Below are positions 2,331-11,992 of a DNA stretch of 44,463 nt, one piece after another. The notes under the pieces are model-generated. The model was not told where the DNA came from. It saw only the letters and a list, made by a program, of their open reading frames with translations, and did not search any database. Numbering within the stretch: position 1 is the first letter of the stretch; every line of letters starts with the position of its first letter. The stretch lies in the IMG/VR virus record IMGVR_UViG_3300045988_106441; one strand, written 5' to 3'. The DNA comes from a virus. The translations under genes and the position numbers were made by a program.

Positions 2331-2832
2331 CCTTCATCGCCTCCACATAGCACCAGCTCTGGGGCGGGCGCTTGATTGTCACCGGCTCCGAGCCAAATTT
2401 CGTTTCACGCAGCCGAGTAAACTCGTCCAACCCCTTTGGCTGGTTATAGATCAGCAGGTCGGAGATATGCCAGCCGTAAATATAGCGTTTTCCCTCTTCG
2501 GAATATTTGAAATAGATATCTTCGCGGCGAACACAGGATTGCTGTTCGGCAATGTCTGCATTTGCCATCTCACATCGTTGTAGGATGTAGTCGCACACAA
2601 ACTCGCCGATAACCTTGCCGTTGCATCTGCCGGCCGTATTGGTCCGGACGGTATCCCTGTCCAGATTTCCACCCTTTACGGAGATATACGGATGACCACT
2701 TGTGCAGTAGATATAGCACTTAAACGGTACCTCCAGTTTCGGCACGGACTTGCGCAATTCCATAGTTTTTCTGCCAATGATGATTTTCGCGCACCACTTG
2801 GGGCGGATGCTGATAAGTACGGCTTTACTCAT
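2320..2832 (-). CDS. ASCH (PUA-like) domain protein
   Basis: The N-terminus AVLISIRPKWCAKIIIGRKTMELRK is typical of ASCH domains. Confidence 0.65.
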   Translation of the reverse strand: MSKAVLISIRPKWCAKIIIGRKTMELRKSVPKLEVPFKCYIYCTSGHPYISVKGGNLDRDTVRTNTAGRCNGKVIGEFVCDYILQRCEMANADIAEQQSCVRREDIYFKYSEEGKRYIYGWHISDLLIYNQPKGLDEFTRLRETKFGSEPVTIKRPPQSWCYVEAMKDGN

Positions 2833-3328
2833 CCTTCATCGCCTCCAATGCTTTCTCCGCCTCCTCGCGGGTGAGGAATACGGTCTTGCCAAAATCGGAA
2901 AACCGATAAAACCTTGGGGCCATTTGCGCGTATTGTACTGCAATGCACCATCCGTTAGTGTACGTTTCGATCCATTTTACCACCATCGGCAATATGGCCT
3001 TTTTCCCGTGGAATCCGTACACAACATCGCCCACCTTGCACGGCAGCACCACCAGCCGCCAGTCCTTGTCGGCCTCGGCCAGTTCCTCCAACCGGTCAAT
3101 ATCGCAGTCTCGGCACAGTTGGCGGAGCTGCTCTGCAGCTTCGTGATCCATGTCGATTTCTTCCGGCGTCCGCTCCGTATCTTCATAGTCGGCCAACTGT
3201 TCAACACACCTCTGCCTAAAAGCACTTTGGGCTATTCTGTCTGGGCCAGACCCATCCCCGAAGTAACAGCTTTTAGGGTAATTATAATCAGCCGCTCCAC
3301 TGGACAAACGCTTAGTTAATCGTTCCAT
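2825..3328 (-). CDS. Hypothetical protein (shares a repeated module with 3956..4438)
   Basis: Start MERLTKRL follows GGAGGAAATG. Contains YEDTERTPEEIDMDHEAAEQLRQLCRDCDIDRLEELAEADKDWRLVVLP. Confidence 0.65.
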   Translation of the reverse strand: MERLTKRLSSGAADYNYPKSCYFGDGSGPDRIAQSAFRQRCVEQLADYEDTERTPEEIDMDHEAAEQLRQLCRDCDIDRLEELAEADKDWRLVVLPCKVGDVVYGFHGKKAILPMVVKWIETYTNGWCIAVQYAQMAPRFYRFSDFGKTVFLTREEAEKALEAMKDE

Positions 3329-3354
3329 CACATTTCCTCCATTCTGGGCCTCGC

Positions 3355-3621
3355 TCACGGCTTGCCCTCCCACGGGGTCTCAAGCCATTTTTTAATTTCA
3401 TGCCAATCTGCTGGCATCGTCGAAACACCAGAGAGGCCTTTCGTAATGAAATCCATCCGGAAATTGAACAGCACCCCGGCCAGCTCGTTGTCCGTCATGC
3501 TCCGGATCCGGTCGGCAATGGTAACGGGCCACGTGCGATACGGGCACTTTTCGATTGCGGCGCAGTTTTCAACGTCATAACCGATTTGCATGGGGCAGTT
3601 TTCACCGGTGCATTTTTTCAT
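3355..3621 (-). CDS. Hypothetical protein
   Basis: Start MKKCTGENC follows GGAGGTAG. ATGA overlap with the upstream gene. Confidence 0.6.
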   Translation of the reverse strand: MKKCTGENCPMQIGYDVENCAAIEKCPYRTWPVTIADRIRSMTDNELAGVLFNFRMDFITKGLSGVSTMPADWHEIKKWLETPWEGKP

Positions 3622-3959
3622 AATTCTACCTCCGTAAGCCAGAACTCCTTTTTGCACTCATAGCAAGTTTGCTTGTTGCAGTTGATACCCATATCGCCGA
3701 ATATATCCATTGGGCAGGCATTAAGACAGCCAGAATCAATTTGTGCGTCAGGGTAATGCTTCAGAAACTCGCTCTGGCGGGTTTTGACGGGGTGCTCCTT
3801 TGCCCACTTTTCGACGATGGCAACGGCCTCGTCCGGGTGGGTTTTTCTCCAGGCTGTGCAGGTTTCAAACACGCTAAGCCTTTTCCTGAACTCGCAGTTG
3901 AAGCACTCACAGTTGCACATTCTGCATAATGTTTTCAAAAACTTCACAGCATCCATCAT
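3618..3959 (-). CDS. Cys-rich hypothetical protein (paralog of 10419..10742)
   Basis: Shares MMDAV.FL, EHPVKTRQS.FL and C.EC+K.FWLTEVE with the ORF at 10419..10742. Confidence 0.65.
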   Translation of the reverse strand: MMDAVKFLKTLCRMCNCECFNCEFRKRLSVFETCTAWRKTHPDEAVAIVEKWAKEHPVKTRQSEFLKHYPDAQIDSGCLNACPMDIFGDMGINCNKQTCYECKKEFWLTEVEL

Positions 3960-4438
3960 TCCGCCTCCGGCCCTTCGGGCAGCACCACCAGCCGCCCGTC
4001 TCTGTCGGCCTCGGCCAGTTTCTCCAGCCGGTCAAGATCGCAGTCTCGGCACAGATGGCGGAGCTGCTCTGCGGCTTCGTGATCCATGTCGATTTCCTCC
4101 GGCTCAAGCCTCGTGTCCTCGTATTGCATGAGCCTGCCACGCAGTTCTGCGTATGACCATGCTGCGGTATAAAGCAGGGCAAGCAGGCCTGTCGGCTCAT
4201 CAGGACCGTCCAGCAAAAGTTCACCCATCGCATAGTCTACGCCATCATCATCCATTGGAAAGTCCAAGTCCAGCAGTAAAATCTTTGCGGCTTTGCGGAT
4301 AAAATCGTAGAGCCGGATGTCCGGGTAATCCGGGCCATCACCTCCGCCCCGCACCCACGTCTCGAAGTCTTTGATGTAAAACAGATTCAGGGCGGCATCA
4401 AGGTTGTTATCCGGGCAATTAGTTGTCAGTCTTTTCAT
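3956..4438 (-). CDS. Hypothetical protein (shares a repeated module with 2825..3328)
   Basis: 160-aa ORF. C-terminus reads YEDTRLEPEEIDMDHEAAEQLRHLCRDCDLDRLEKLAEADRDGRLVVLP. Confidence 0.7.
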   Translation of the reverse strand: MKRLTTNCPDNNLDAALNLFYIKDFETWVRGGGDGPDYPDIRLYDFIRKAAKILLLDLDFPMDDDGVDYAMGELLLDGPDEPTGLLALLYTAAWSYAELRGRLMQYEDTRLEPEEIDMDHEAAEQLRHLCRDCDLDRLEKLAEADRDGRLVVLPEGPEAE

Positions 4439-4816
4439 TTACCTTTCCTCCTTCGGCGGCTCCGGCAGCGGCATCCACGCCAAAGCACGAGCATTTGTTC
4501 CATTGGCAACTTCACCGCCCCAGATCCCGTTGTTTTGATATCCGAGTGCGTAATTTACAAACATTCCATTAAAGTCTCCATAGCGGAAATACTCACCCCA
4601 ACACAGCACTTTCCGAAAATTCTCCGGTAGCCGCTCCTCCACCGGGATCCAGTGGGGCACCTGCCCCCGCAGTTTCTCAATTTCTTTCGCCTGCGCTTCG
4701 ATCCGGTCAGCGGCCTCCGCCAGATCATCGCCCAGCGTGATCGGCGTTTCCCACTCATTTGCCTGCGCCCATTCTGCGTGCTCACGCAGAGCATTTACGA
4801 GGTTTGTATCTCTCAT
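4439..4816 (-). CDS. DUF551-like phage protein
   Basis: WIPVEERLPENFRKVLCWG...AWMPLPEPP resembles the DUF551 pattern. ATGA overlap with the MTase stop codon. Confidence 0.6.
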   Translation of the reverse strand: MRDTNLVNALREHAEWAQANEWETPITLGDDLAEAADRIEAQAKEIEKLRGQVPHWIPVEERLPENFRKVLCWGEYFRYGDFNGMFVNYALGYQNNGIWGGEVANGTNARALAWMPLPEPPKEER

Positions 4817-6457
4817 AATTCATCCTTTCCGTATGGGAACAAAAAGCGCCCCATGTCTCCTGGTTTCTCTACCGTGCCGAACCGCCGTTTGGTCACTGCG
4901 ATGGGAAACTCTTCAATCTCGCTGGCCCATAGGCACGTTCCGCGTCCGTTCAACTGCTCCCAGATCAGCGGGAAACCACCTATTCCATCGAACAAACTTG
5001 CCATAGTCGCGTCCCGCTCGTAGTTGCCGCACAGCCGTTTCAACAGCCATTTCCACGGCGGCAGGGCGATGGAGTTGCCCAGTGCCTTATACCGGGGGCT
5101 GTCCGCATCCTTGTGGCGCTTGCCCTTGCTGTCCATCCACTCGCCGATATCCGTCCAGCCGTCCGGGTAGCCCTGCAGCCGTTCGCGCTCCATCGGGGTA
5201 AGGCGTCGCACGATCATGCCCGTTCTCACGGTGTTCTGCAAATTGTAGCTGATTCCGCCGTTTGATTTTGCCTGCAAAGTCCCGTTTGTTTCGCCGCCTT
5301 CACGGAAGTTCCGGCAGTCAACGGCACACACAAGGTCTGTGCTGTCCTTAAAGTCCCGTTGCTTGCAACTGCTTGCAACTTCCCCCTCGCGGTAATCGCC
5401 GAATCCCTGCATTTGATATGTCAGCGGTATCTGGTTTCCCCCCGTCCCCATGCGTGCTTGCAAGCTTGGTGCGACCTCGCCGCAGTCTCGGATGACATCG
5501 CAAGCATGGCTCATATCCAGAATGGAGGGCTGGTGCCCATGCTCCTGTGCTCTCAGCGTCCCGGAAACATCATGGCTCACGCCCATCACATTCCCGCCTT
5601 GATCGTTCAGGCACAGCACCGCTGGTTTTTTCCCGCCGCACTCCGCATTCAGCGTAGGGGATTGCTCTTCGGCGTATCCGATGCTTCGCGCTTGCTCGCT
5701 GTTGCCGAGTTTAAACCCGGCGCATACAACCGGCTGATTGTTTCCGCTCATTCCTGCAGCGGCGGTCAAGGTTGGTGCTCTATCATCGCTTCGGACCTCG
5801 GCCCCGCCTTGCTGTGTTCCCATGCAGAAAATCGCCGGATTATTTACTCCCCCGCCAACGCCACCTTGTAGCGTCGGGGATTCTCCCTCTGTTCCAAAAA
5901 TCCGTTTGCTTTGGCAGTCCCATGCTGTTAAGCATTGCTCTGTTTTACCAGCACGGCTTTCAGCGTTTCCGGCAAGTCTTTCCCCCGCCGTTCCGCTCTC
6001 CGCAGGATGCCCTGACACGCTTTTGCGCTCAAAGAGTATTTCTCCTGCGGTGTCGCCTCCAAAATCTGCGACAACCGAGATACGACGGCGGCGTTGGGGG
6101 ACTCCCCAGTATTGCGCATCATGCACTCGCCAAGCCACGCTCCATCGTCCTCCCACTTCATCGTGGTAGCCCCCCCAGGTTGGCCAGCCTTTTTCAGGCA
6201 CTTCAATATCGGGGGCTTCCGGCTCTGCGATGCGGATGGCTTCTTCGAGGACGGCTGCGAAGTCTTTTCCGCCGTTGCTTGAGAAGGCTCCGGGGACATT
6301 TTCCCAGACCATATACCGAGGTCGCACAAACTCACCTGTTCGCCCGCTTGCCATGTCACGTTCTCTCATCTCCTTGATAATCCGTATTTGCTCCATATAC
6401 AGGCCGGAACGCGCCCCGGCAAGCCCTGCCCGTTTTCCGGCAATGGAAAGGTCCTGG
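4813..6457 (-). pseudogene. DNA (cytosine-5)-methyltransferase, distal fragment, cut off from its start by the insertion
   Basis: Contains ENVPGAF (motif VI), QYWGVPQRRRR (VIII), RRLTPMERERLQGYPDGW (IX), YKALGNSIALP (X), then MASLFDGIGGF (I) and WASEIEEF (II). The frame stays open upstream of ATG 6396 to 6457 (QDLSIAGKRAGLAGARSGLY). Confidence 0.85.
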
Positions 6458-6477
6458 TTATCCCGAATTCGGAATAA

Positions 6478-6565
6478 CCAGGATTATGCCGAGGAAATAG
6501 TTATTCCGAAGTCATTGCATAGAGTCTTGTAAAACAAGGATTCTCCGCAAAAACTTCGGAATAAC
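6478..6565. repeat. Left terminal inverted repeat of the RIT-like element
   Basis: ccaggattatgccgaggaaatagttattccgaagt (35 bp perfect), a divergent spacer, then aaaaacttcggaataac (17 bp perfect), compared with the reverse complement of 10254..10342. Confidence 0.85.
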
Positions 6566-6589
6566 AAAGCGGGCCTCATTTTATATAAT
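6561..6589 (+). promoter_or_regulatory. Candidate promoter for the recombinase trio
   Basis: ATAACA, 17 nt, TATAAT. The -35 overlaps the 13-bp motif copy at 6553-6565. RBS AAGGAGG precedes ATG 6638. Confidence 0.3.
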
Positions 6590-6637
6590 GTGGATATGCA
6601 GACAACCGTCTGACACCACAAAATATAAGGAGGGCCT

Positions 6638-8239
6638 ATGGAACTGATTGAATTAGACGCAACTGCACAGCGTGCCCTGGAGTTGTTAATCAATGCGGGG
6701 ATGAGTGATGGAAGCATATACGACTATACTCATACAGGTTTTGGCAGCATACTTCGACATTTTCACACAAAAGGCATACTATATGCGACAGGAGAAATGC
6801 TTGACACGTTTTTGCTGGAACAACGCACACTTTTAAACCAGGGAGAGATTTCACTGTGGAAATGGAGACTTGTTCGCAGGAGTTGTGAGCTTCTGAAACA
6901 ATGTTCAGCGACGGATTCTATTGATTTACCTGATCTTCGCCCATGGGACCCTGTATGGGATCGTCCCAAGCAGGTCATTCACCGTGACACTCCAACGGAA
7001 AAACAGTTTGCAGACTCTGAAAATATCTATGTGCTTGTCTGGATGGTCAATAAACGAATGGAACAGATGGGCCTTTCGGAAAGTACGATCCGACATTACA
7101 CGGAAGAGGGCTTGGCCGTCATCTTAAAAAAGCATTATGATTCTGGCACAGAAAATTACTCAGACAAACTTATGTCCCAGCTTATAGAGGAACGAAGACT
7201 GCAATACGAGCAAGGGGAGGTTGGCAGAACTACTTATCAGAATTTGCGTAAAGCGGCGGCGATGCTCCAGGAGTTCCGCCTGACAGGGAAAATCACGCCG
7301 GAAAGGATTCCTAATTGGGGACGGCGCGAAGTTATTCCTCAGCACAAAGCGATTCTGGATAAATTCAGTGCGCATGTCACAACGCAGAGCAACTGGGCTG
7401 AAAGTTCCGTCAGCACAGTTACAAGTGTAGCCCATGTATTTTTGCTTGAATTAGAGGATCATGGAGTAGCCTCTGTTGAAACTGTTGCAAGGATGGATAT
7501 TGTCGCATGCGTTACAAGAATGCTTGGACGATACACTGGTGGAATGAGATCTGCTCTTTTTGGCATTCGGACCTTTCTGCGATTTTTATATGAGGCCGAG
7601 ATCACTGCGGATAATTTTTGCAAAACACTCCCGGAATTTGTTTGCCCTCGGAAGAACTTTCGTGAAGGTTTTTCCGATGATGAATTGGAACGTCTACTTT
7701 CTCAGCCAGATACCACATCTGCGGTCGGGAAAAGAGACTACGCTATGATGGTTTTGGCTGCGCAAAGCGGCTTGCGGTCTTGCGACATCATACGGCTCAC
7801 ATTTGACAGTATCAATTGGAGAACGAGGGAAATTCGTGTTGTTCAGCACAAAACAGGACAACCAATCGTAATTCCTCTTGAACCGGAAGCAGGTAACGCT
7901 ATAGCAGATTACTTGCTAAATGGGCGCCCCAAAAGTTCACTACCGCAAATTTTCCTCTGTCACGTCGGTGCTGTCCGTGCTTTGAAAAGTCGAACCGGAA
8001 GTGCAATTGTCTCCAAATACATGAAGGGCGCAGGAATTCATTCCGGGTATCGCGGATTCCACAGTTTCCGGCGCACCTTTGCTACAAGTTTGCTTCAGAG
8101 CAAAGTGTCAATCGAGTTGATTCAACAGATGTTAGGACAGACTCATATTGATTCTGCAAAGCCATACCTGTCCATTGATGAACAGGGGTTAAAGCAGTGT
8201 GCGTTGCCCTTGATCTCCCATGGAAAGGCAGGGAACTGA
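6638..8239 (+). CDS. Tyrosine recombinase 1 of the trio (RitA-like, long N-terminal extension)
   Basis: 533 aa. GLRSCD...HSFRRTFATSLL...LGQTHIDSAKPYL gives an R..HxxR..Y pattern. RBS AAGGAGG. Confidence 0.9.
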   Translation: MELIELDATAQRALELLINAGMSDGSIYDYTHTGFGSILRHFHTKGILYATGEMLDTFLLEQRTLLNQGEISLWKWRLVRRSCELLKQCSATDSIDLPDLRPWDPVWDRPKQVIHRDTPTEKQFADSENIYVLVWMVNKRMEQMGLSESTIRHYTEEGLAVILKKHYDSGTENYSDKLMSQLIEERRLQYEQGEVGRTTYQNLRKAAAMLQEFRLTGKITPERIPNWGRREVIPQHKAILDKFSAHVTTQSNWAESSVSTVTSVAHVFLLELEDHGVASVETVARMDIVACVTRMLGRYTGGMRSALFGIRTFLRFLYEAEITADNFCKTLPEFVCPRKNFREGFSDDELERLLSQPDTTSAVGKRDYAMMVLAAQSGLRSCDIIRLTFDSINWRTREIRVVQHKTGQPIVIPLEPEAGNAIADYLLNGRPKSSLPQIFLCHVGAVRALKSRTGSAIVSKYMKGAGIHSGYRGFHSFRRTFATSLLQSKVSIELIQQMLGQTHIDSAKPYLSIDEQGLKQCALPLISHGKAGN

Positions 8240-9208
8240 ATGGTGTACACCTTCGAGAGCCACTTTGCAGCCCAGATTGAGAATTTCATTGCTCAGAAAA
8301 ACGCGCTGGGGTTTGGTTATCTGGAGTCCTCCCGTCTCCTGCGAGACTTTGACCGCTTTTGCCTGACGCATTTCCCGGAAGAAAATACACTGACCAAGGA
8401 GCTTTGCTTAGCTTGGGCCACGAAAAAGGATACCGAAGGCAACAATACCTTCCGCAACCGTATGATGCCGGTGCGCGAGTTTGCCAGATACTTAAACCGC
8501 AACGGCGAAGCTGCTTACATTCTGCCGCCAGACATTGCCAGGAAAGATGCGCCGTATGCCCCGTACATCTACACCGAGGCCGAAATCCTGGCCATTTGGG
8601 ATGTTTTCGACCACTTGAAACCGAGAGGTGGTTTCCCGGTGCGGCAATTTGTGATCCCAGCTATGATAAAGCTGATGTACTGCTGCGGTCTGCGTCCATC
8701 TGAGGCCAGAAGGCTTCATGTAGACGATGTGGATTTGGACATTGGGCGGCTGAACATTATGGAGAGCAAACAGCACAGGAGCCGTATTGTTATGATGGCG
8801 GATGATGTGACGAAGATGCTCTCAGATTGCAATGCCGTTGTGACTTCCGCTATGCCGGAACGCGAGCCGTTCTTTCCCAACTCTGAGGGCGGTTTTTACG
8901 GGAAGAGAGGGCTGGAGAAGACTTTCCGCCTGGTTTTGAAGAAAGCAGGTGTTACGGGAACCGGCCGACGTTCCCCGCGTCTTTATGACTTTCGTCATAC
9001 TTTTGCCACCCACAGGCTGTACCACTGGATGAACGAGGGCAAAGATCTGAACGTTATGATTCCCTATCTGAGCGCGTACATGGGCCATGCGCAACTCTCG
9101 GACACCTATTACTACATTCATTTAGTTCCTGGCTTGTTGGAGGAAATGTCCGGGTTCACGTTTTCTTCTGCCGAGGCATTCTTGCCGGAGGTAGGAAACG
9201 ATGAGTGA
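8240..9208 (+). CDS. Tyrosine recombinase 2 of the trio (RitB-like)
   Basis: 322 aa. GLRPSEARRL...HDFRHTFATHRL...MGHAQLSDTYYYIH. Starts directly after the stop codon of gene 1. Confidence 0.9.
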   Translation: MVYTFESHFAAQIENFIAQKNALGFGYLESSRLLRDFDRFCLTHFPEENTLTKELCLAWATKKDTEGNNTFRNRMMPVREFARYLNRNGEAAYILPPDIARKDAPYAPYIYTEAEILAIWDVFDHLKPRGGFPVRQFVIPAMIKLMYCCGLRPSEARRLHVDDVDLDIGRLNIMESKQHRSRIVMMADDVTKMLSDCNAVVTSAMPEREPFFPNSEGGFYGKRGLEKTFRLVLKKAGVTGTGRRSPRLYDFRHTFATHRLYHWMNEGKDLNVMIPYLSAYMGHAQLSDTYYYIHLVPGLLEEMSGFTFSSAEAFLPEVGNDE

Positions 9209-10226
9209 TTTCTTTGATGCAATCCGGCGTTTTCTGCTGGACTATCTGCCCAAGCAGCGCTGCCTTAGTAAAAATACGATTCTCTCCTACAGACAGACAC
9301 TCAATATTTTCGTGGCTTATATGAGGGATGAGATAGGGATTGGAGCTGCTGAGCTGACCTTCTCCCGTGTTGACCGGGACGTCATTCTTAACTTCCTAAC
9401 CTGGCTGGAAAAGGCGCGGGGATGTAGTGTCTCTACCCGCAACCAGCGTTTAATGGCATTGCGGTCTTTCCTGGACTTCGCTGGACAAATCGATTGTACG
9501 CAGACGTCATTGTATCTTTCTGCCTGCAATATTCCCTCCAAGGAGGCTCACGGGCGAATCGTTGAATTCCTGACCGAACCGGCGTTGACCGCGCTGCTTC
9601 AACAGCCCAATCCTTCCAGGCAGAAAGACCAGCGGAATCTTGTATTCATGATCCTCATGTATGATACCGCTGCCCGATGCAGTGAACTTCTCGATATGAA
9701 GGTCTGTGACCTGCGTCTTGACGCAAAACATCCAATTGCGTACTTGCATGGTAAGGGACGAAAAACCCGTACAGTGCCGTTGCTGAACAGAACAGTCCAA
9801 CACTGCAAACAGTATCTGAACAAATTCCATCCCAACAAGGATGACTACAGTGAGGCACCGTTGTTCTATACCATGATCCATGGGAGGCAGCAAAAGATGT
9901 CTCCCGATACGGTAGCAGCATTCTTTGCAAAGTATGGGAGCATGGCAAAGGCGGTTTGTCAGGAAGTTCCCGAACATATCCATCCGCACATGATGCGGCA
10001 CACACGGGCGATGCACTTATACCAATCCGGGATGCCCATGGTACTTCTTTCCCAATATCTTGGCCATGCACAGGTTGAGACAACAATGATCTATGCTTAT
10101 GCGGATACCGAGATGAAACGTGCCGCAATTCAGAAAGCTGATGCTGTCCGTGGAACCAAGCCCGTGCCGGATGAGATTTGGGCTGATAACGAGGAAATGA
10201 TTTTGAAGTTATCTGGTCTGCTCTAA
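9201..10226 (+). CDS. Tyrosine recombinase 3 of the trio (RitC-like)
   Basis: 341 aa. TAARCSELLDM...HMMRHTRAMHLY...LGHAQVETTMIYAYAD. Overlaps gene 2 by 8 nt. Confidence 0.9.
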   Translation: MSDFFDAIRRFLLDYLPKQRCLSKNTILSYRQTLNIFVAYMRDEIGIGAAELTFSRVDRDVILNFLTWLEKARGCSVSTRNQRLMALRSFLDFAGQIDCTQTSLYLSACNIPSKEAHGRIVEFLTEPALTALLQQPNPSRQKDQRNLVFMILMYDTAARCSELLDMKVCDLRLDAKHPIAYLHGKGRKTRTVPLLNRTVQHCKQYLNKFHPNKDDYSEAPLFYTMIHGRQQKMSPDTVAAFFAKYGSMAKAVCQEVPEHIHPHMMRHTRAMHLYQSGMPMVLLSQYLGHAQVETTMIYAYADTEMKRAAIQKADAVRGTKPVPDEIWADNEEMILKLSGLL

Positions 10227-10253
10227 TCCTATTGTTCTATATATGCCGATTAT

Positions 10254-10342
10254 GTTATTCCGAAGTTTTTGCTGGTAACGCCTTGTACTACAGGGTTTGC
10301 AGCGATTACTTCGGAATAACTATTTCCTCGGCATAATCCTGG
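10254..10342. repeat. Right terminal inverted repeat of the RIT-like element
   Basis: Its reverse complement matches 6478..6565 (35 bp and 17 bp perfect blocks). Contains GTTATTCCGAAGT at 10254-10266 and its inverse at 10308-10320. Confidence 0.85.
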
Positions 10343-10422
10343 CATGGGCTGCCGCCGATCACCACGTCCACAACGGGTGCTTCCCCGCCGTGGATCTTTG
10401 TTATGTCGCCTAAGTGGATCAT
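10337..10422 (-). pseudogene. DNA (cytosine-5)-methyltransferase, proximal fragment (start codon to the PCQ motif)
   Basis: MIHLGDITKIHGGEAPVVDVVIGGSPCQ(D), preceded by GGAGGTGGAGGA. In the current state it reads into the element and stops after ...QDYAEEIVIPK at 10306. Confidence 0.85.
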
Positions 10423-10742
10423 TCCTCCACCTCCGTAAGCCAGAATTTCTTCCGGCACTCCAGGCAACATCCCACGCCGGGGCAATTTCCACGCAATACT
10501 GCATCCACTTCGCAAGGAGACATTTTGACGATCCCGGTATCTGGAAATATTGGTGCATTGGGAAACATCTCCAAAAACACGCTCTGCCTGGTTTTGACGG
10601 GGTGCTCTGCGGCCCACTGTTCGACTTGACTAACGAGTGATATAGGTTCAATATGTGCAATATTAAGTTCTTCACCGTAATAATCCGGGTTGCTTTTACT
10701 GCGTTTTTTCAGTTGTTCCAAAAACTCCACAGCATCCATCAT
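10419..10742 (-). CDS. Cys-rich hypothetical protein (paralog of 3618..3959)
   Basis: 107 aa sharing the N-terminal, central and C-terminal motifs of 3618..3959. ATGA overlap with the MTase start. Confidence 0.65.
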   Translation of the reverse strand: MMDAVEFLEQLKKRSKSNPDYYGEELNIAHIEPISLVSQVEQWAAEHPVKTRQSVFLEMFPNAPIFPDTGIVKMSPCEVDAVLRGNCPGVGCCLECRKKFWLTEVEE

Positions 10743-11146: not shown

Positions 11147-11300
11147 TGTTCGCCTCTTTCTTCGGCTCAAATCCGCTCTTTCCCTCGCACTTGCACAGGT
11201 AGCATTTGTCTGAATGTCTGTTTGCACAATGTACGCATGCAAAGGCAAACGTATAAACCCCCATCGGGTAAAGAACGGGTTCGGTAGATTCAACCTTCAT
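11136..11300 (-). CDS. Small Cys-rich ORF (54 aa)
   Basis: Hand translation gives MKVESTEPVLYPMGVYTFAFACVHCANRHSDKCYLCKCEGKSGFEPKKEANNEN. ATGA overlap with the upstream MTase stop, and it overlaps the rusA start. Confidence 0.4.
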   Translation of the reverse strand: MKVESTEPVLYPMGVYTFAFACVHCANRHSDKCYLCKCEGKSGFEPKKEANNEN

Positions 11301-11992
11301 CGTTTTCCCTCCTCACAGGTAAACAAACTGATCTGCGCCGTGTGTTCCGCAAAGCGCTTTTCCTGCGCCTGAAAATAGTGAGGGTCGATCTCGCATCCAG
11401 CAAAATCAAAACCAAGATCATAGGCGGCTATGCGGCTGCTACCGCTGCCTAAGTGGGTGTCCAGTATCTTGTCTCCGGGCTTGGCGTACTTCTGAAGCAA
11501 CCACACGTAAAGCGCCACAGGCTTCTGCGTCGGATGAATGCGCTGCTCGTTCAGCGCCTTATTCCCTTGCTGGATAAACCCCTCTGCGATGCTTTTGCCC
11601 TGCATCATTCCATTCCACATGTAGTGGAAAAGCCGTACGCTGTCATGGCAGTTTGTGGCTGCGATCTCGCAATCGCTAAAAGAGCTGCCCTCGTTGCACT
11701 TGTTCCAAACAATGCGCCCCGGCGCAAAGTGATAGTCGAAATAGTTGCAACCCCAAACGATATAGCGCTTTGCGACACGTTCCAACTCATCGAAATATTC
11801 ACGTGTCGGAATATCCCACTTCGGCGATATGGGGTAGTCTCTGTGCACACCGATTTTGCTGACCTTGCAGCCATAATATCCGCGCCGCTCCGGCCCGCTG
11901 AAATATGGAGGGTCTACCACAGCCAGATCAAACGCCTTATCGGACAGCGTCCGCATATACTCCATGCAGTCCATGTTATAGGCTACGTTCAC
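11297..11992 (-). CDS. DNA methyltransferase, N6-adenine/N4-cytosine type (DPPY)
   Basis: DLAVVDPPY (motif IV) precedes ILDTHLGSGSS (motif I), the beta-class order. GTG start 6 nt after AAGGAGGAAAAG. Confidence 0.85.
   Translation of the reverse strand: MNVAYNMDCMEYMRTLSDKAFDLAVVDPPYFSGPERRGYYGCKVSKIGVHRDYPISPKWDIPTREYFDELERVAKRYIVWGCNYFDYHFAPGRIVWNKCNEGSSFSDCEIAATNCHDSVRLFHYMWNGMMQGKSIAEGFIQQGNKALNEQRIHPTQKPVALYVWLLQKYAKPGDKILDTHLGSGSSRIAAYDLGFDFAGCEIDPHYFQAQEKRFAEHTAQISLFTCEEGKR

Follow-up and report, generated by a model that had tools for sequence, protein, structure and literature searches.

A probable orphan DNA cytosine-5 methyltransferase of gut phages, naturally permuted between motifs II and III and interrupted here by a recombinase-in-trio-like insert

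The viral DNA stretch IMGVR_UViG_3300045988_106441 (44,463 nucleotides; here called the window, meaning the whole stretch that was analyzed) is a 44.5-kb temperate-phage genome with genes for a large terminase, an SPP1-type portal, a Mu-F-like protein, ERF, RusA, and a serine recombinase. It contains a gene for a putative DNA cytosine-5 methyltransferase (C5-MTase), a gut-phage gene situated in the early/recombination region within a conserved local order of RusA, a small open reading frame (ORF), the methyltransferase, and DUF551. The gene lies on the minus strand in two pieces, 10422..10337 and 6456..4813, separated by an insert. An earlier note on this DNA had proposed that conceptual removal of the insertion leaves an ORF of 574 amino acids, and this is indeed the length of the joined product. 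The start codon at 10422 is preceded by GGAGGTGGAGGA and shares an ATGA overlap with the upstream ORF (10419..10742), bearing out the strong ribosome-binding site and the gene overlap described for this start. The N-terminal piece encodes MIHLGDITKIHGGEAPVVDVVIGGSPCQD and is then broken off by the insert; reading resumes at 6456 with QDLSIAGKRAGL... and stops at 4813. Followed from the start codon, the features are these:

10337..10422, minus strand: 5' piece of the methyltransferase gene, 100% identical to the intact gene of the nearest virus record (G001)
10422, minus strand: start codon ATG, followed by motif III (HLGDITKI, 10416..10393) and motif IV (GGSPC, including the catalytic Cys, 10356..10342)
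End of the 5' piece 10337..10422: CCAGGA, one copy of the 6-bp target duplication
6458..10336, no strand assigned: insert of 3,879 bp, recombinase-in-trio-like, with terminal inverted repeats (GGATTATGCCGAGGAAATAGTTATTCCGAAG and its complement) and the flanking 6-bp duplication CCAGGA
6638..8239, plus strand: tyrosine recombinase 1, 533 amino acids (PF00589, E 4e-25)
8240..9208, plus strand: tyrosine recombinase 2, 322 amino acids (PF00589, E 2e-21)
9201..10226, plus strand: tyrosine recombinase 3, 341 amino acids (PF00589, E 5e-31), with an N-terminal SAM-like domain (PF02899)
6025..6456, minus strand: rest of motif IV (QDLSIAG, 6456..6436), motif VI (ENVPGAF, 6303..6283), motif VIII (QYWGVPQRRRR, 6114..6082), and EILFER (6042..6025)
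5209..6024, minus strand: variable target-recognition region, about residues 172-443, of low AlphaFold2 (AF2) confidence
5059..5208, minus strand: motif IX (RRLTPMERERLQGYPDGW, 5208..5155) and motif X (YKALGNSIALP, 5091..5059)
5005..5058, minus strand: X-to-I connector of 18 amino acids (PWKWLLKRLCGNYERDAT), equivalent to the C-terminal tail helix of canonical relatives
4816..5004, minus strand: relocated N-terminal module, with the ancestral start Met and motif I (MASLFDGIGGF, 5004..4972) and motif II (WASEIEEF, 4929..4906)
4881..4816, minus strand: 22-amino-acid tail after motif II (FGTVEKPGDMGRFLFPYGKDEL), followed by the stop codon at 4815..4813

The insert looks like a recombinase-in-trio (RIT) element, as three adjacent tyrosine recombinase genes of the same orientation, on the strand opposite to the methyltransferase gene, are enclosed by inverted repeats of about 31 bp. 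Its conceptual removal is justified by two empty sites. The nearest virus record (G001; 41,005 bp, 61% shared words) has an uninterrupted methyltransferase ORF of 666 amino acids and corresponds to window positions 11300-10337 at 100% identity and then directly to positions 6457-5949, an exact empty site at which the two alignments overlap by 6 nucleotides, CCAGGA. The same insert-free junction is present at locus L001, whose gene is 87% identical. Since the insert sits directly after the catalytic Cys codon, the methyltransferase copy in the window is a knock-out.

The restored protein does not follow the canonical linear order from motif I to motif X. Its motifs are arranged as III-IV-(V)-VI-VIII, target-recognition region, IX-X-I-II, with the catalytic motifs GGSPCQ (IV), ENVPGAF (VI), and QRRRR (VIII, QxRxR) and with the S-adenosylmethionine (AdoMet)-binding motifs FDGIGGF (I), SEIEE (II), GD (III), and GNS (X) all conserved. 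The C5-MTase profile PF00145 scores 110.9 bits against it (curated cut-off, 22), and the match splits into two pieces, as the earlier note had predicted for a permuted enzyme with motifs I and II at the C terminus: residues 3-99 correspond to profile positions 46-129, while the last 63 amino acids alone correspond to positions 4-44 (E 2.2e-4). For P0015, an intact homologue with 87% identity, TIGR00675 yields 123.3 bits against a cut-off of 100.65, and phmmer against the PDB aligns residues 508-550 with M.HhaI residues 15-55 (motif I, FxGxG, and motif II) and residues 5-61 with M.HhaI residues 59-115 (motif III, GD, and motif IV, PC). The C-terminal 63 residues are accordingly the motif I/II module they had been taken for, and from the two P0015 alignments the break lies at about M.HhaI residues 56-58, between motifs II and III.

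With the N terminus between motifs II and III and the native termini joined, through a connector made of the ancestral tail and the ancestral start, the protein has the layout that is called Type B among engineered permutants. It differs, as had been noted before, from the M.BssHII type (Type H), whose new termini fall within the variable region, with IX-X ahead of I; here that region is internal, and the chain begins and ends between II and III. Two details of the earlier description needed correction. Motif X does lead directly into motif I, through 18 amino acids between ...IALP and MASLF rather than the roughly 14 first estimated; and the chain does start ahead of the catalytic motifs, with HLGDITKI being motif III itself and not merely the segment following motif II. 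A search with tblastn found no upstream or second I-II-like segment anywhere in the window, and among 80 IMG/VR loci, the 68 whose motif IV could be placed all lack a motif I upstream of it. An upstream I-II segment was one of three findings that, according to the earlier note, would have refuted its reading; on all three counts, including the nature of the C-terminal 63 residues and the state of the homologues, the outcome favours that reading. As far as sequence comparison goes, the observation of a natural Type B permutation is confirmed.

The permuted order extends far beyond the window. In a search of 5.8 billion proteins, all 120 of the closest protein clusters (90%-clusters) among the matches listed have it, at 64-100% identity and with lengths of 526-775 amino acids; they start with M[KILT]HLGD or a 5'-truncated form, have their PCQ near residue 26, and close with FDGIGG...WASEIEEFPIAVTK. 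When 1.84 billion representatives at 50% identity were searched exhaustively with phmmer, 32,628 matches were obtained; of the best 150, which were classified, at least 109 are permuted in this manner and 8 are canonical. Family lengths range from 339 to 1201 amino acids, varying through the variable region. In at least 49 of the 80 IMG/VR loci, the gene is one unbroken ORF in which motif I follows motif IV in frame, and cultured carriers are known in the Faecalibacterium phages FP_Toutatis and Lelie. Among 107 diverse members, P26, C27, Q28, E79, V81, G482, N483, F511, G513, G515, and E535 are invariant, and D6, N80, R149, R150, and R152 are conserved in at least 90%, the pattern that would be expected of an active enzyme. 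The homologues thus present a conserved, intact architecture in place of a decayed second gene, and, judged by its sequences, this is a large, conserved, natural phage-borne family and not a decayed fusion.

Structure prediction gave a confident core with the permuted order of elements. With an alignment of 107 sequences, AF2 assigned a predicted local distance difference test score (pLDDT) of about 90-98 to residues 1-175 and 435-553. The predicted elements follow each other as b3, b4, helix, b5, helix, b6, and b7, then, past the variable region, the motif IX helix, the motif X helix, the connector helix, and finally b1-aA-b2-aB (b1, 507-510; aA, 516-525; b2, 530-534; aB, 538-548). The top Foldseek matches in the PDB are M.HhaI (E 7e-9), M.MpeI, and M.HaeIII; the alignment spans about 160 columns (motifs III-VIII), because only the sequential part can be aligned in a permutant. 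From this model, the I-II module would be expected to pack within the same chain. The same Rossmann-like AdoMet-binding and catalytic domain could form, since the canonical termini adjoin each other and the II-III loop is at the surface. In such a chain, the polypeptide would begin at strand beta3 (motif III, GD), pass through motifs IV (Pro-Cys), VI (ENV), and VIII (QxRxR), leave for the long variable target-recognition region, and come back via motifs IX and X; the ancestral C-terminal helix would then lead straight into the ancestral N terminus with motif I (FxGxG) and motif II (acidic residue), where the chain ends.

The junctions can be compared with eight canonical phage C5-MTases (P0198, P0205, P0209, P0220, P0226, P0247, P0255, and P0256) that are 52-57% identical over the matched stretches. 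These relatives share their I-II module (SLFDGIGGFP...WASEIE.FPI.VT) and their III-VIII core with the permuted family, but their I-II module is N-terminal and the protein ends about 25 amino acids past motif X. They begin with M..(L/M)GSLFDGIGGFP...WASEIE.FPI.VT..RFP.M.H.GDITK, and the permuted proteins start exactly at the conserved internal Met of the canonical '(R/H)FP.M.H.GD'. Conversely, the internal 'T(M/L)(A/G)SLFDG' of the permuted proteins corresponds to the ancestral N terminus, and the ancestral C-terminal tail is represented by the 18-24 residues that lie between GNS and that Met. In the window subclade, the C-terminal tail RF-GTVEKP-GD has the RF-6-GD spacing of motif III in the canonical relatives, which is consistent with the tail being a relic of a duplicated copy.

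These correspondences fit an origin by duplication and truncation, a model that goes back to Jeltsch 1999 (as cited in PMC7544214) and is discussed in PMC5944983; they likewise suit the fossil start codon and the trimming of both ends that the earlier note had envisaged. The topology would most likely have arisen once, in a Firmicute/gut-phage methyltransferase clade, when a canonical gene was duplicated in tandem and in frame and then lost whatever preceded the internal Met of 'RFP.M.H.GD' and whatever followed motif II in the second copy. When 123 de-permuted sequences were placed in a tree, the eight close canonical proteins grouped as one clade apart from the permuted sequences (Shimodaira-Hasegawa-like approximate likelihood ratio test, 98), which allows a single origin of the permutation.

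We therefore consider it very probable that the gene product is an orphan DNA cytosine-5 methyltransferase of a phage, with a natural circular permutation between motifs II and III (Type B), and that the gene is disrupted here by the RIT element. The interpretation offered in the earlier note is supported by the motif order, the family conservation, the empty site, the predicted core, and the junction homology; the enzymatic activity, biological role, and evolutionary route of the permuted enzyme are what we infer. Several points weigh against this reading. A sizeable minority of family members are interrupted by poly-G frameshifts, by a TAGN insert after the Cys codon, or by RIT insertions, so that the enzyme may often be switched off or dispensable. 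AF2 gives no model for residues 186-430, in the variable region, or for the 16 C-terminal residues, and with a shallow alignment of 40 close homologues it gave a pLDDT of 28.6. As the Foldseek match covers motifs III-VIII only, the placement of the I-II module depends on AF2 confidence alone. Finally, the tree is weakly rooted; a single origin is allowed, and the root is uncertain.

Among other explanations, the one that survives best is that the AdoMet domain is incomplete in one chain, so that a domain-swapped dimer or a partner subunit would be needed. Natural split C5-MTases do exist, II/III fragment complementation works for M.MpeI, and the class-beta amino-methyltransferases, in which the catalytic motifs also come first, are obligate dimers (PMC7544214). 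We nevertheless regard this as very unlikely: the connector of 18-24 amino acids, homologous to the ancestral C-terminal helix, ties motif X directly to motif I, as an intramolecular fold needs, the AF2 monomer has a pLDDT above 90 at both ends, engineered single-chain cp62M.MpeI is active, and there is no partner methyltransferase fragment in the window. It is less likely again that the fold has been kept for a chemistry other than plain DNA C5 methylation, for instance the transfer of a different group or action on RNA. In its favour, the variable region is modular and of great length (family members span 339-1201 amino acids overall), and a C5-carboxymethyltransferase appears at Foldseek rank 40; however, all C5-MTase catalytic motifs are there (PCQ, ENV, QxRxR, and GNS), M.HhaI, M.HaeIII, and M.MpeI are the best matches in both sequence and fold, and the phage context beside a second DNA methyltransferase is typical of antirestriction methylases. 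Least credible of all is the view of the I-II segment as what is left of the 5' end of a decayed second methyltransferase gene, fused in frame to give an inactive relic, for although the module starts with Met and the tail of the window subclade has GD at motif III spacing (RF-6 amino acids-GD), as a truncated second copy would leave, the architecture is kept in at least 109 50%-identity clusters and in hundreds of viral contigs, the motif I/II residues are invariant, no canonical I-II segment lies upstream, and AF2 confidence for the module is high.

If the gene encodes a permuted C5-MTase, its likely role would be to methylate the phage's own DNA, perhaps at several sites, and in this way to protect it from host restriction. 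Within the variable region of the window (5209-6024, minus strand), six '[ST]L[QTNR]A' modules occur about 31-62 amino acids apart. The spaced modules, together with the length range of 339-1201 amino acids, suggest that the variable region may be multispecific, and they recall the tandem target-recognition domains of multispecific Bacillus phage methyltransferases.

Within the methyltransferase gene, we also observed a second reading frame:

5928..6359, minus strand: ORF of 143 codons in the +1 frame, across motifs VI-VIII

Counterparts are found in L005 (1231-1707), L006 (1273-1701), and L003 (2501-3106). The C-terminal part of about 70 residues (...LSQILE...KY.LSAKACQGILRRA.RRGK.LP..L) is 55-60% identical to the +1 frame in the canonical C5-MTase genes of Mycobacterium phage Omega and Vibrio phage 1.171.O. 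That this similarity is a by-product of main-frame conservation was rejected for the C-terminal ~72 codons by synonymous-codon shuffles that preserve the methyltransferase (observed similarity, 122-171; null maximum, at most 96; z 7.6-12); for the part upstream of motif VIII, the shuffles reject this explanation weakly. The +1 frame is open in all 70 loci with motifs VI and VIII in one open frame, while the +2 frame always has stops, and an ATG or GTG is found at a conserved position with AAGGAG preceding it. The +1-frame peptide matched no Pfam or NCBIfam family, and literature searches found no account of the embedded ORF.

The same part of the gene has a homopolymeric tract. A run of 6-8 G is present between motifs VI and VIII in 42 of the 70 loci; in the window it is G7 at about 6170-6180, and in L003 and L004 the position is about 2820-2880. 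The deposited genomes of FP_Toutatis and Lelie and several contigs are frameshifted at the poly-G run, each in a different frame, and some of these frameshifts join the N-terminal half of the methyltransferase to the +1-frame peptide. The tract could be phase variable, slippery, or prone to sequencing error.

The site directly after the Cys codon is occupied in other loci as well. The window insert itself had no blastn matches in other loci. L015 (1-1500) has a diverged RIT at the same site of the methyltransferase gene, with a first recombinase that is 25.6% identical (tblastn, E 2e-56), and so the coding sequence of motif IV seems to be a target of this RIT family. A 4-nucleotide TAGN insert lies directly 3' of the Cys codon (..CCT TGT [TAGA] CAG GAT..) in 11 of about 87 loci, as TAGA in L010, L014, L022, L023, L032, L040, L050, L051, and L068 and as TAGC in L066 and L086, at about nucleotide 1490-1500 in each. 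TAGN amounts to a stop plus a +1 shift, and most downstream ORFs are still full length. Near-identical sequences include both TAGN and plain alleles in a mixed distribution, which makes the low ratio of nonsynonymous to synonymous substitution rates in TAGN genes uninformative, and the TAGN site is the RIT insertion site. As the right end of the RIT (TAAC|CAGGA) resembles TAGA|CAGGA, an excision scar is one possible explanation; TAGN could also be a switch or a recoding signal. An ancient programmed +1 frameshift is disfavoured, given that tRNA-Cys cannot re-pair in the +1 frame and that the two kinds of allele are intermixed.

A broader proposal, which we hold tentatively and think doubtful, would bring these observations together. 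The clade would then be a natural 'permutation laboratory', with canonical enzymes, Type B permutants, and variable-region permutants sharing one X-to-I junction as a living record of duplication and truncation, and its gene would be switched in multiple ways: an embedded +1-frame gene would be under selection from Mycobacterium and Vibrio phages to gut phages, the Cys codon would be a dedicated target of diverged RITs, with recurrent TAGN at the same site, and these, together with the poly-G tract, would toggle methylase expression at the DNA level.

Other genes near the methyltransferase can be noted briefly. A second DNA methyltransferase (PF01555, N6/N4 type, DPPY motif) is encoded at 11297-11992 on the minus strand, two genes upstream of the C5-MTase and past RusA. 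The minus-strand ORFs 3618-3959 and 10419-10742 encode paralogous Cys-rich proteins of about 110 amino acids that start with MMDAV.FL and end with FWLTEVE, and a near-identical segment, 'EPEEIDMDHEAAEQLR.LCRDCD.DRLE.LAEAD.D.RLVVLP', is common to the paralogous ORFs 2825-3373 and 3956-4438, also on the minus strand.

Natural C5-MTases with other rearrangements provide a basis for comparison. Enzymes of the M.BssHII type (M.BssHII, M.Alw26I, M2.Eco31I, M.Esp3I, and M2.BsaI) are likewise permuted, with motif X covalently joined to motif I; their break lies in the variable region (IX-X-I...VIII) and leaves the two domains intact, whereas the present family is broken within the AdoMet-binding subdomain. 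P0128 and a few other members of the clade do have a variable-region break like that of M.BssHII. This third topology, TRD-IX-X-I-II-III...VIII (TRD, target-recognition domain), was seen in five representatives (P0128, P0175, P0204, P0272, and P0273), which have the same X-to-I junction as Type B and are nested in Type B clades at at least four places; P0128 is a complete gene (L007 1637-3259, L008, and L009) in the middle of 7-kb contigs from three samples. The plant DRM methyltransferases, which gave weak PDB matches here, are natural C5-MTases with rearranged motifs as well, but they are eukaryotic and have a different breakpoint. Their motif order is VI-X followed by I-V. In the class-beta N6A/N4C amino-methyltransferases (M.PvuII, M.RsrI, and CcrM), motif IV also comes first, followed by the target-recognition domain and a C-terminal motif I (PMC7544214); these belong to another branch of the superfamily, use DPPY chemistry, are broken between III and IV instead of II and III, and are thought to be obligate dimers.

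The closest counterparts are laboratory constructs. Albert et al. 2018 (PMC5944983) made 21 engineered permutants of M.MpeI and M.SssI, among which Type B, with the N terminus between II and III, was by far the most active, cp62M.MpeI being close to wild type. Their scan of 20,677 C5 entries in REBASE identified 27 natural permutants, all broken in the variable region and none of Type B, and weaker AdoMet binding was suggested as a reason why nature does not use this arrangement (PMC5944983). The family described here shares with the engineered Type B enzymes the N terminus between II and III, the joining of the native C terminus to the native N terminus, and the order III-VIII, TRD, IX, X, I, II. 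The engineered proteins derive from CG-specific Mollicute enzymes, whereas the present family is natural, phage borne, and large, with long modular variable regions. We found no report of a natural II/III permutant in the literature searched, including papers citing PMC5944983; for REBASE, the scan by Albert et al. covers entries up to 2018. Within that literature, a widespread natural family of Type B C5-MTases has apparently gone undescribed.

C5-MTases are a textbook case of rigid motif order, and the natural exceptions reported so far keep both structural domains intact. Abundant as they are, these methylases of gut phages will be split wrongly or described incompletely by annotation pipelines and by motif-order filters of the REBASE kind. 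Albert et al. asked why nature avoids the II/III permutant, and a natural Type B family would answer that nature does use it, which makes the idea about AdoMet affinity directly testable on native enzymes. With close relatives that are canonical or permuted in the variable region, the family offers a concrete system for the evolution of protein topology by duplication and truncation.

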